From: Escherichia coli
GTDB taxonomy: Bacteria; Pseudomonadota; Gammaproteobacteria; Enterobacterales; Enterobacteriaceae
Direction: 5' to 3' (one strand)
Length of the DNA: 64,000 bases
NCBI RefSeq assembly: GCF_003334815.1
Contig: NZ_QOWO01000010.1
The notes beneath the pieces are model-generated. The model was not told where the DNA came from. It ran no database searches and saw nothing but the letters and a program-made list of their open reading frames with translations. Position 1 is the first letter of the stretch. Each line of letters opens with the position of its first letter. A program made the position numbers and the translations under genes. This document shows positions 43,118 to 43,673 of the stretch, one piece after another.

Positions 43118-43453
43118 TCTTTATACCTATTTATCATGCCAACTATCAGCATATATCAATCTAACCAATTAAACAAAAATCAAACAAAATCAGACAAATA
43201 ACGCGATAAATTATTTTAACTGTAGCAATTGAGCGATGATATATTTATACACCGGATGAACTTTCACTTATCCTCACACTGACAACTTCGGCACCAGACG
43301 TTGCGCAAACAGTGAAGTTTTTGCGTAACCTTTTCCCTGGAACGTTAAATCTTTGATAACAATTTATTGTCTAACAAGTTGTATATTTTTTGAAACGCTG
43401 TTTTTGTTTTCCTTTTGGATTAATTTCAGCGTATAATGCGCGCCAATTGACTC

Positions 43454-43468
43454 TTGAATGGTTTCAGC
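43454..43468. promoter_or_regulatory. putative Cra (FruR) operator in the pykF leader
   Basis: ttgaatggtttcagc resembles the TGAAWC..GTTTCA Cra half-site arrangement; pykF is a known Cra target. Confidence 0.45.
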
Positions 43469-43673
43469 ACTTTGGACTGTAGAACTCAACGACTCAAAAA
43501 CAGGCACTCACGTTGGGCTGAGACACAAGCACACATTCCTCTGCACGCTTTTTCGATGTCACCTATCCTTAGAGCGAGGCACCACCACTTTCGTAATACC
43601 GGATTCGCTTTCCGGCAGTGCGCCCAGAAAGCAAGTTTCTCCCATCCTTCTCAACTTAAAGACTAAGACTGTC

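Follow-up and report, generated by a model that had tools for sequence, protein, structure and literature searches.

This analysis concerns the interval between fumD and pykF in a 64,000-nt stretch of Escherichia coli DNA (contig NZ_QOWO01000010.1 of assembly GCF_003334815.1), hereafter the window. The interval covers the 556 bp (43118-43673) between the end of fumD at 43117 and the native ATG of pykF at 43674. It harbors a small upstream open reading frame (uORF), ynhH, that begins shortly after the Cra (FruR) operator of pykF and ends at the pykF start. Comparison of this leader across Enterobacterales indicates that the reading frame of ynhH is kept open by selection, and that what is selected is the open frame and not the sequence of the encoded peptide. 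Translation of the leader probably helps pykF expression, be it through coupling to the pykF start or through shielding from Rho, as these comparisons suggest. Taken as a whole, the interval is fairly likely to be a pykF control region with four working layers, namely a distal promoter, the Cra operator, a translated leader, and a proximal promoter.

A previous sequence-only reading of this DNA had described a long AT-rich spacer with a candidate Cra operator and a spurious in-frame extension of pykF. Its coordinates are exact: the gap measures 556 bp, TTGAATGGTTTCAGC lies at 43454-43468, and the ATG at 43458, in the pykF frame, adds 72 codons. The gap is not an empty spacer, since RefSeq places ynhH at 43472-43666 in a frame other than that of pykF. 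The picture of a long AT-rich leader is also incomplete: it considered the pykF frame alone, and it left out both ynhH and an internal promoter. As to base composition, the gap has a G+C content of 39% overall versus 50% for the window, but it is bipartite: the description as AT-rich holds for the upstream 325 bp (43118-43442, 33%) and not for the transcribed leader of 231 nt (43443-43673, 48%), in which C far exceeds G (68 C, 43 G).

The ynhH frame, its peptide and the leader RNA

The features on which the argument rests first are the following.
43472-43666, plus strand: ynhH, 64 codons, TTG start, TAA at 43664-43666, 7 nt before the pykF ATG; RefSeq WP_240806354.1, 'protein YnhH'
43644-43673, plus strand: pykF translation initiation region ATCCTTCTCAACTTAAAGACTAAGACTGTC, mean column identity 94-96%, with stops in both non-pykF frames
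43674-45086, plus strand: pykF coding sequence from the native start, 470 aa; the NCBIfam PykF equivalog is matched over positions 1-470 of 470

The comparative set consists of 81 leaders and 80 PykF orthologues from species-representative Enterobacterales genomes, with a Cra site in 79 loci; family membership was assigned from genus names. The uORF was called as the first TTG, ATG, or GTG at most 16 nt after the operator core and read to the first stop, and 74 of the 81 leaders have both a site and a start. The resulting frame runs for 60-85 codons and stops between -18 and +11 of the pykF ATG in 71 of these 74 loci, usually as TAA at -10, as TAG at -13 or -14, or as a TGA overlapping the start codon (ATGA). 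By contrast, when this start is moved by +1 or +2 nt, the frame extends to pykF in 0/74 and 2/74 loci, with on average 3.0 and 3.08 stops per locus versus 0.26 in the uORF frame. The frame is intact in all Enterobacteriaceae (39/39), Yersiniaceae (12/12), Hafniaceae (2/2), and Pectobacteriaceae (5/5), in 12/13 Erwiniaceae, and in just 1/7 Morganellaceae, 0/2 Budviciaceae, and 0/1 Plesiomonas. Its start stays at a fixed position while the codon used there switches among TTG, ATG, and GTG (in E. coli, TTG 43472 lies about 27-30 nt past the distal transcription start site, TSS), and its frame relative to pykF varies between genera, giving 37 distinct architectures of length and frame. Since the leader interior cannot be aligned between families, the frame has stayed open through complete sequence turnover and frameshifts. 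Within the species the leader hardly varies, with 5420 of 5427 E. coli records at 99% identity or more.

Two other start codons were tried and set aside: the ATG inside the operator, from which the frame ends early in 75/79 loci, and TTG 43454, which is in frame with the open ORF in only 46/79.

The alternative that survives best holds that YnhH is a functional small protein acting in trans, so that its place upstream of pykF would be mere operon organization. The protein is indeed annotated: its sequence corresponds to YNHH_ECOLI in UniRef, it matches the Pfam family YnhH-like (PF23642, E 7e-50) end to end, over positions 1-64 of 64, and annotated homologues from Escherichia, Citrobacter, and Salmonella share 70-92% identity with it. 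A short FRNTG stretch varies mainly at third codon positions, and comparisons against E. coli alone give a ratio of nonsynonymous to synonymous changes (dN/dS) of 0.48 in the ynhH frame versus 0.88 and 1.14 in the others. This sign of a constrained peptide was dropped, however, when 11 phylogenetically independent pairs of equal length were used: dN/dS is then 0.77 (95% confidence interval 0.58-1.01) in the ynhH frame, an interval that reaches 1 and does not separate it from the other two frames (0.93 and 1.08), and differences in the same pairs are spread flat over codon positions 1, 2, and 3 (79/79/85). The peptides encoded outside Enterobacteriaceae are unrelated, and the frame in which the conserved nucleotide blocks are read varies. 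Within Enterobacteriaceae, the invariant residues SPIL and SQLKD fall where the DNA holds the internal -10 element and the initiation region of pykF. YnhH is very basic, without a hydrophobic segment, and AlphaFold2 run with an alignment yields no confident fold (predicted local distance difference test score, pLDDT, 55; predicted template modeling score, pTM, 0.18). PF23642 itself carries no function, and conservation of the pykF leader at the nucleotide level accounts for the similarity that it records. A trans-acting YnhH is thus unlikely, and the comparisons favor a frame selected for its openness.

It could also be supposed that the leader is plainly untranslated and carries nothing besides the Cra operator, with the open frame as a by-product of stop-poor composition. 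The leader is C-rich and poor in stops, ynhH lacks a Shine-Dalgarno (SD) sequence, and in E. coli the pykF frame is open by chance as well. Dinucleotide-preserving shuffles of the leader interior leave the frame open in some 15% of trials (22% with the E. coli leader), which predicts 11.0 open frames among 74 loci. Against the 71 observed, and with roughly three stops per locus in each neighboring frame of the same leaders, this account is very improbable; nor would composition explain an openness that survives divergence beyond alignment and changes of frame, or a start that keeps its place while its NTG codon changes.

A third possibility is that the conservation reflects RNA structure, the leader being a structured cis-regulatory RNA such as a riboswitch, an attenuator, or a target of a small RNA (sRNA). 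Three nucleotide islands are conserved regardless of reading frame, and one small hairpin carries compensatory changes.
43607-43632, plus strand: hairpin GCUUUC-N14-GAAAGC within ynhH, just upstream of the 5' end reported at about -34

In this hairpin 81.9% of cells are paired versus 35-59% in slid controls, 15 cells are changed on both sides, the covariation score is matched by 0/500 shuffles, and compensatory variants (CTTTC/GAAAG, CTCCG/CGGAG, and CTTCC/GGAAG) occur across Enterobacteriaceae. The leader as a whole behaves otherwise. Its fold is less stable than that of its shuffles (z = +1.47), the alignment fold of 32 leaders gives a consensus of only -6.6 kcal/mol with almost no covariation term, and a promoter and terminator scan found no terminator-like site in it. 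An Rfam scan of 42400-45500 returned no match within 43118-43673, even at E values up to 10. The three islands are accounted for by the operator, the -10 element, and the pykF initiation region, which makes a structured regulatory RNA a poor candidate, with little probability left to it.

Operator, promoters and the pykF start

Upstream of ynhH and within it lie the following control elements.
43387-43417, plus strand: conserved T-rich block TTTTTGAAACGCTGTTTTTGTTTTCCTTTTG, about -57 to -27 of the distal TSS; column identities mostly 80-100% across 39 Enterobacteriaceae
43432-43437, plus strand: -10 hexamer TATAAT of the distal pykF promoter, 97-100% conserved
43438-43446, plus strand: GC-rich discriminator GCGCGCC and distal TSS, the latter at about 43443-43446, or -231 to -229 from the ATG
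43451-43468, plus strand: Cra operator CTCTTGAATGGTTTCAGC, with its core TGAATGGTTTCA at 43455-43466
43517-43573, plus strand: conserved island in ynhH, containing GCTGAGAC, TCTGCACGCT, and the proximal -10; column identities 85-100%
43563-43571, plus strand: proximal -10, C-TATCCT-TA (core GTCACCTATCCTTA), of sigma-S type; TSS at about 43576-43577

The operator agrees with the Cra motif TGAAWCGWTTCA at 11 of 12 core positions, with a single mismatch and a perfect right half, GTTTCAGC. A scan of all 64 kb recovers it at this one mismatch, but the count in itself is no more than chance: two matches with at most one mismatch were found versus 0.85 expected, and 20 of 100 shuffles equal that count. 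That the site is not random follows instead from its context and conservation, namely its likeness to a fruB operator, its fixed spacing from the promoter, and its deep identity. Compared with the validated proximal operator of fruB, TTCTTGAAACGTTTCAGC (the Cra consensus being GCTGAAACGTTTCA; PMC11157272), the pykF site is identical except for the first base and two central bases. Like other operators of the Cra regulon, it is an imperfect palindrome, TGAA-N4-TTCA, just downstream of the -10 and the TSS; unlike them, it has TG as its central dinucleotide instead of AC or TC. Its core starts 17 nt past TATAAT, so that the operator covers about +10 to +26 of the TSS and is centered near +17. Column identity in the operator is 87-100% across the 39 Enterobacteriaceae, and 16/16 positions are identical in Yersinia, Erwinia, Serratia, Rahnella, Hafnia, and Edwardsiella, where the remaining leader cannot be aligned. 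In the literature pykF is listed among Cra-repressed genes (PMC9948231) and a FruR-regulated pykF promoter is tabulated (PMC2759082).

On these grounds the suspected site can be identified as the pykF Cra/FruR operator, at a position that fits repression. PMC2759082 puts the FruR site '197 nt upstream of the ATG', whereas the site found here is centered at -213; no other Cra-like 12-mer occurs near -197 in the leader, and the published figure probably uses another reference point.

Several smaller observations concern Cra-like sequences. The second core match with at most one mismatch in the window, TAAAACGTTTCA at 12546-12557, lies within the sodC coding sequence and is probably due to chance. 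At 43517-43524, E. coli has GCTGAGAC where most other Enterobacteriaceae have GCTGAAAC or GCTGAACC, with GCTGA conserved at about 100%; this GCTGA(A/G)AC-type block equals the left half of the Cra consensus and, some 62 nt past the operator, may represent a second half-site. Between the -10 and the operator, Yersinia, Pectobacterium, Dickeya, and Erwinia have ACGTCGTTTCA(G/A)T, which amounts to a second GTTTCA half-site abutting the operator; this half-site is absent from E. coli.

The distal promoter is recognizable mainly by its -10 element. Of the 79 loci with a site, nearly all have TATAAT, or in a few cases TATACT, 21-24 nt ahead of the TGAA core, and the GC-rich discriminator GCGCGCC would fit control by guanosine tetraphosphate (ppGpp). 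No good -35 hexamer is present at a spacing of 16-18 nt, where TTCCTT or TTTCCT is read, and a simple consensus promoter scan did not call the promoter. The T-rich block further upstream could be an UP element or an activator site and may take the place of the -35. In many species it reads TGAAAC-N4-TTTT(C/T)A, with an inverted TGAAA/TTTCA pair, and E. coli has TTTTTG there.

Published start sites can be matched to this promoter. As far as the table in PMC2759082 goes, a FruR-regulated pykF TSS was predicted at -231, which corresponds to 43443 (Bledig et al. 1996). For Salmonella Typhimurium, differential RNA sequencing (dRNA-seq; Table S1 of PMC3293720) lists a primary TSS of the sigma-70 class right after TATAATGCGCGCCA, the upstream sequence given ending in CGTATAATGCGCGCCA. 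The counts for this distal TSS are 6 and 43, in columns that we take to be the wild type and the relA spoT (ppGpp-null) mutant (PMC3293720). The SL1344 annotation used in that paper gives pykF 1359 nt, starting at the internal Met19, versus 1413 nt for the conserved gene. Because pykF is thus annotated 54 nt short, the tabulated 5' untranslated regions (UTRs) of 283 and 152 nt are overstated by 54 nt; the longer, once corrected, puts the distal Salmonella TSS at about -229, equivalent to 43445 in the window. The distal promoter is therefore real, at least in Salmonella.

The proximal promoter lies inside ynhH, in the island at 43517-43573 that is the best-conserved block of the leader after the operator. 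Its -10 element is found at -113 to -134 from the ATG in most families, as TATCCT, TATTCT, or TATACT after a conserved C, and across families this block is read in all three codon phases of the uORF. It corresponds to promoter pykFP4-P5 of Olvera et al. (PMC2759082), located by rapid amplification of 5' cDNA ends (5'RACE) and transcribed in vitro by both sigma factors. In the same study, 5' ends of E. coli pykF mRNA on glucose were placed at about -97, -80, and -34, the latter two without recognizable promoters and possibly products of processing. The Salmonella data contain a primary TSS classed as sigma-38 at about -98 (PMC3293720; the 152-nt UTR less 54). Because this promoter sits within ynhH, its transcript has neither the operator nor the start of the uORF.

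The frame of pykF itself is open further upstream, as follows.
43458-45086, plus strand: program-listed open reading frame including pykF, 542 aa
43458-43673, plus strand: spurious in-frame extension of pykF, 72 codons, with its ATG inside the Cra operator

All 80 PykF orthologues begin with one common N-terminal sequence, and the solved chains of E. coli PykF all have 470 residues with the Met of 43674 as the first. The in-frame extension reaches 72 codons in E. coli and E. albertii only; most other genera have an interrupting stop 2-39 codons from the pykF ATG. The ATG at 43458 has no SD sequence (duplex with the anti-SD +0.7 kcal/mol), and residues 1-72 of the extended frame match nothing among solved pyruvate kinases. 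In those two species the frame is open from 43458 into pykF, and the ATG is conserved as part of the operator. That E. coli makes a PykF of 542 aa from this ATG has nevertheless next to no likelihood, for the ORF read from it ends early in 75/79 loci, and the common N-terminus of the orthologues directly follows upstream sequence that is not homologous. The extension is an accident of the E. coli sequence, as the sequence-only reading had held in calling it spurious. Both the Cra operator of pykF and its correct start are already known biology.

At the other end of the gene, the 3' end of pykF and its terminator hairpin (GCGCCCTGATGGGCGC and then a T run; 44956-45145) give a sub-threshold Rfam match to GcvB (29.7 bits versus a gathering score of 42; E 5.6e-4), which is probably driven by the terminator.

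How leader translation could act on pykF

The start of pykF has hardly any SD sequence: its best duplex with the anti-SD reaches -1.3 kcal/mol, whereas lpp has -6.3 and the long ORFs of the window have a median of -4.5. From a frame that is selected while its peptide is not, from this near-absent SD, and from a long, unstructured leader with C in excess of G, we infer that ynhH acts in cis. A sequence of events can be proposed. Cra free of its effector, when the sugar-phosphate effector is low, would block the distal promoter at about +10 to +26; repression of pykF is established in the literature, and the position is that found in this analysis. When the distal promoter fires, it would yield an mRNA with a leader of about 230 nt. 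Ribosomes would start at UUG 43472, read 64 codons, and stop at UAA 43664-43666; translation of ynhH is suggested both by its annotation and by the comparative signature of selection. This translation would cover the leader with ribosomes, guarding it against Rho termination and against decay or nucleases, and the terminating ribosomes could be handed over to the nearly SD-less start of pykF by coupling of termination to reinitiation. The proximal sigma-S-type promoter would produce a transcript with a short leader, subject neither to Cra nor to the uORF. The product of pykF is the chief pyruvate kinase of glycolysis in enterobacteria. In its full form, the proposal is that pykF expression from the Cra-controlled, growth-phase promoter requires translation of a uORF of 60-85 codons whose peptide is irrelevant, and that the sigma-S-type promoter bypasses this requirement in slow growth. 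We regard this full form as a tentative possibility.

Several points weigh against the proposed mechanism. Start-site data, which the sequence-only reading had named as a check, are divided: the distal TSS is a primary one in Salmonella dRNA-seq, but 5'RACE on glucose-grown E. coli did not reveal it (Olvera et al.; PMC2759082). Should the proximal promoter account for most pykF mRNA, the uORF would touch a minority of transcripts only. With no SD sequence (-2.2 kcal/mol) and UUG as its start codon, ynhH may be weakly initiated. Proteus, most Photorhabdus and Xenorhabdus, Budvicia, and Plesiomonas lack the uORF or have a short one, and as the loci come from related species, 71/74 does not represent 71 independent trials. 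The conserved last 20 nt before pykF have stops in both non-pykF frames, so that any open frame must end near the ATG; with its stop position forced in this way, the end point of the uORF is not independent evidence for coupling. As to Rho, the leader has a C/G ratio of 1.3-1.8, which falls near the 90th-95th percentile of the window, and the count of YC dimers is 32 versus a median of 28, which makes the resemblance to a Rho utilization (rut) site moderate and the YC dimers unexceptional. Among published data, pykF is absent from the supplements examined of an E. coli 3'-end mapping paper that provides evidence on Rho. The literature searched yielded no ribosome-profiling, proteomic, or reporter data on ynhH and offered no trace of the experimental basis of its annotation beyond a gene list in an avibactam paper. 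Neither text nor supplements of the E. coli Ribo-RET studies examined mention ynhH, and no paper linking pykF with an upstream ORF was found, in a literature coverage that is incomplete.

Among known systems, ynhH would by analogy work most like coupling uORFs such as uof-fur. Translational coupling of uof to fur in E. coli was reportedly described by Vecerek, Moll and Blasi in 2007. Like uof, ynhH lies on the same mRNA as the main gene and ends at its start. In uof-fur, fur depends on the translation of uof and not on its peptide, and the same dependence of pykF on ynhH is proposed here by analogy. The two differ in that uof has about 28 codons whereas ynhH has 64 and spans the leader from the operator to the pykF start, with no known sRNA control. 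A second comparison is with leader ORFs that gate Rho, such as tnaC-tnaA and toiL-topAI. These share with ynhH a position in a long, unstructured leader with C in excess of G, upstream of the gene. However, tnaC and toiL have conserved residues for sensing or arrest, and the uORF ends well before the gene, thereby exposing a rut site, whereas ynhH lacks a conserved peptide motif of its own and runs up to the pykF start; its link to Rho is a prediction. Finally, trpL, hisL, pheL, and thrL are likewise small ORFs in the leaders of metabolic genes. Unlike them, ynhH has no conserved run of regulatory codons (the HHH at codons 37-39 is not kept elsewhere), its leader has no terminator or antiterminator, and the ORF is 4-5 times longer.

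Should the proposal be true, the output of pykF would be tied to the availability of ribosomes, by way of reinitiation at a start that lacks an SD sequence, protection from Rho, or both, and a conserved translational layer would be added to a textbook gene so far treated as purely Cra-regulated. There would be practical consequences as well. Fragments of the pykF promoter are widely used in reporters of Cra activity and glycolytic flux and in metabolic engineering, and in one case the 'RBS' (ribosome binding site) just upstream of pykF was replaced, which cuts into ynhH (PMC7041290). If leader translation is needed, such constructs would mix transcriptional and translational control, and edits to a supposedly 'non-coding' leader could have unintended effects. 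The comparative data also reclassify ynhH from an annotated 'small protein' to a uORF that is conserved in position and free in sequence, a distinction relevant to the expanding lists of small bacterial proteins.

The rest of the fumD-pykF interval

Two features make up the left side of the interval.
42908-43117, minus strand: fumD coding sequence, 69 aa, listed as an ORF and in RefSeq; NCBIfam equivalog NF007630, E 1.4e-45, matched over 1-69 of 69; left boundary of the gap
43118-43386, no strand: AT-rich divergent intergenic DNA from fumD to the pykF promoter, G+C content 26-33% except for a hump of 48% at 43251-43340

The locus is chromosomal and common to the species: the 901 bases around the gap are 100% identical to many E. 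coli strains and were found in 5426/5426 complete genomes. The intergenic DNA at 43118-43386 can be aligned within Escherichia only, and homology to other genera ends at about -287 from the pykF ATG. Near fumD, in this AT-rich part, an 11-nt unit, AATCAAACAAA, is present in three copies at 43167-43198; besides it, a repeat search of the gap returned only short two-copy matches that are likely due to chance.

Insertion sequences have reached the neighborhood in some strains. In two E. coli strains (NZ_CP139125.1 and NZ_CP147050.1), an IS1A insertion splits fumD and leaves the pykF leader and ynhH intact. A foreign copy of the leader, 87% identical and with an annotated ORF of 64 aa, is carried by pB19374_2 (NZ_CP142917.1), a 74-kb E. 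coli plasmid. There pykF is truncated by IS26 and the copy adjoins TEM-1, and it looks like a chromosomal fragment of another enterobacterium that was mobilized by IS26.

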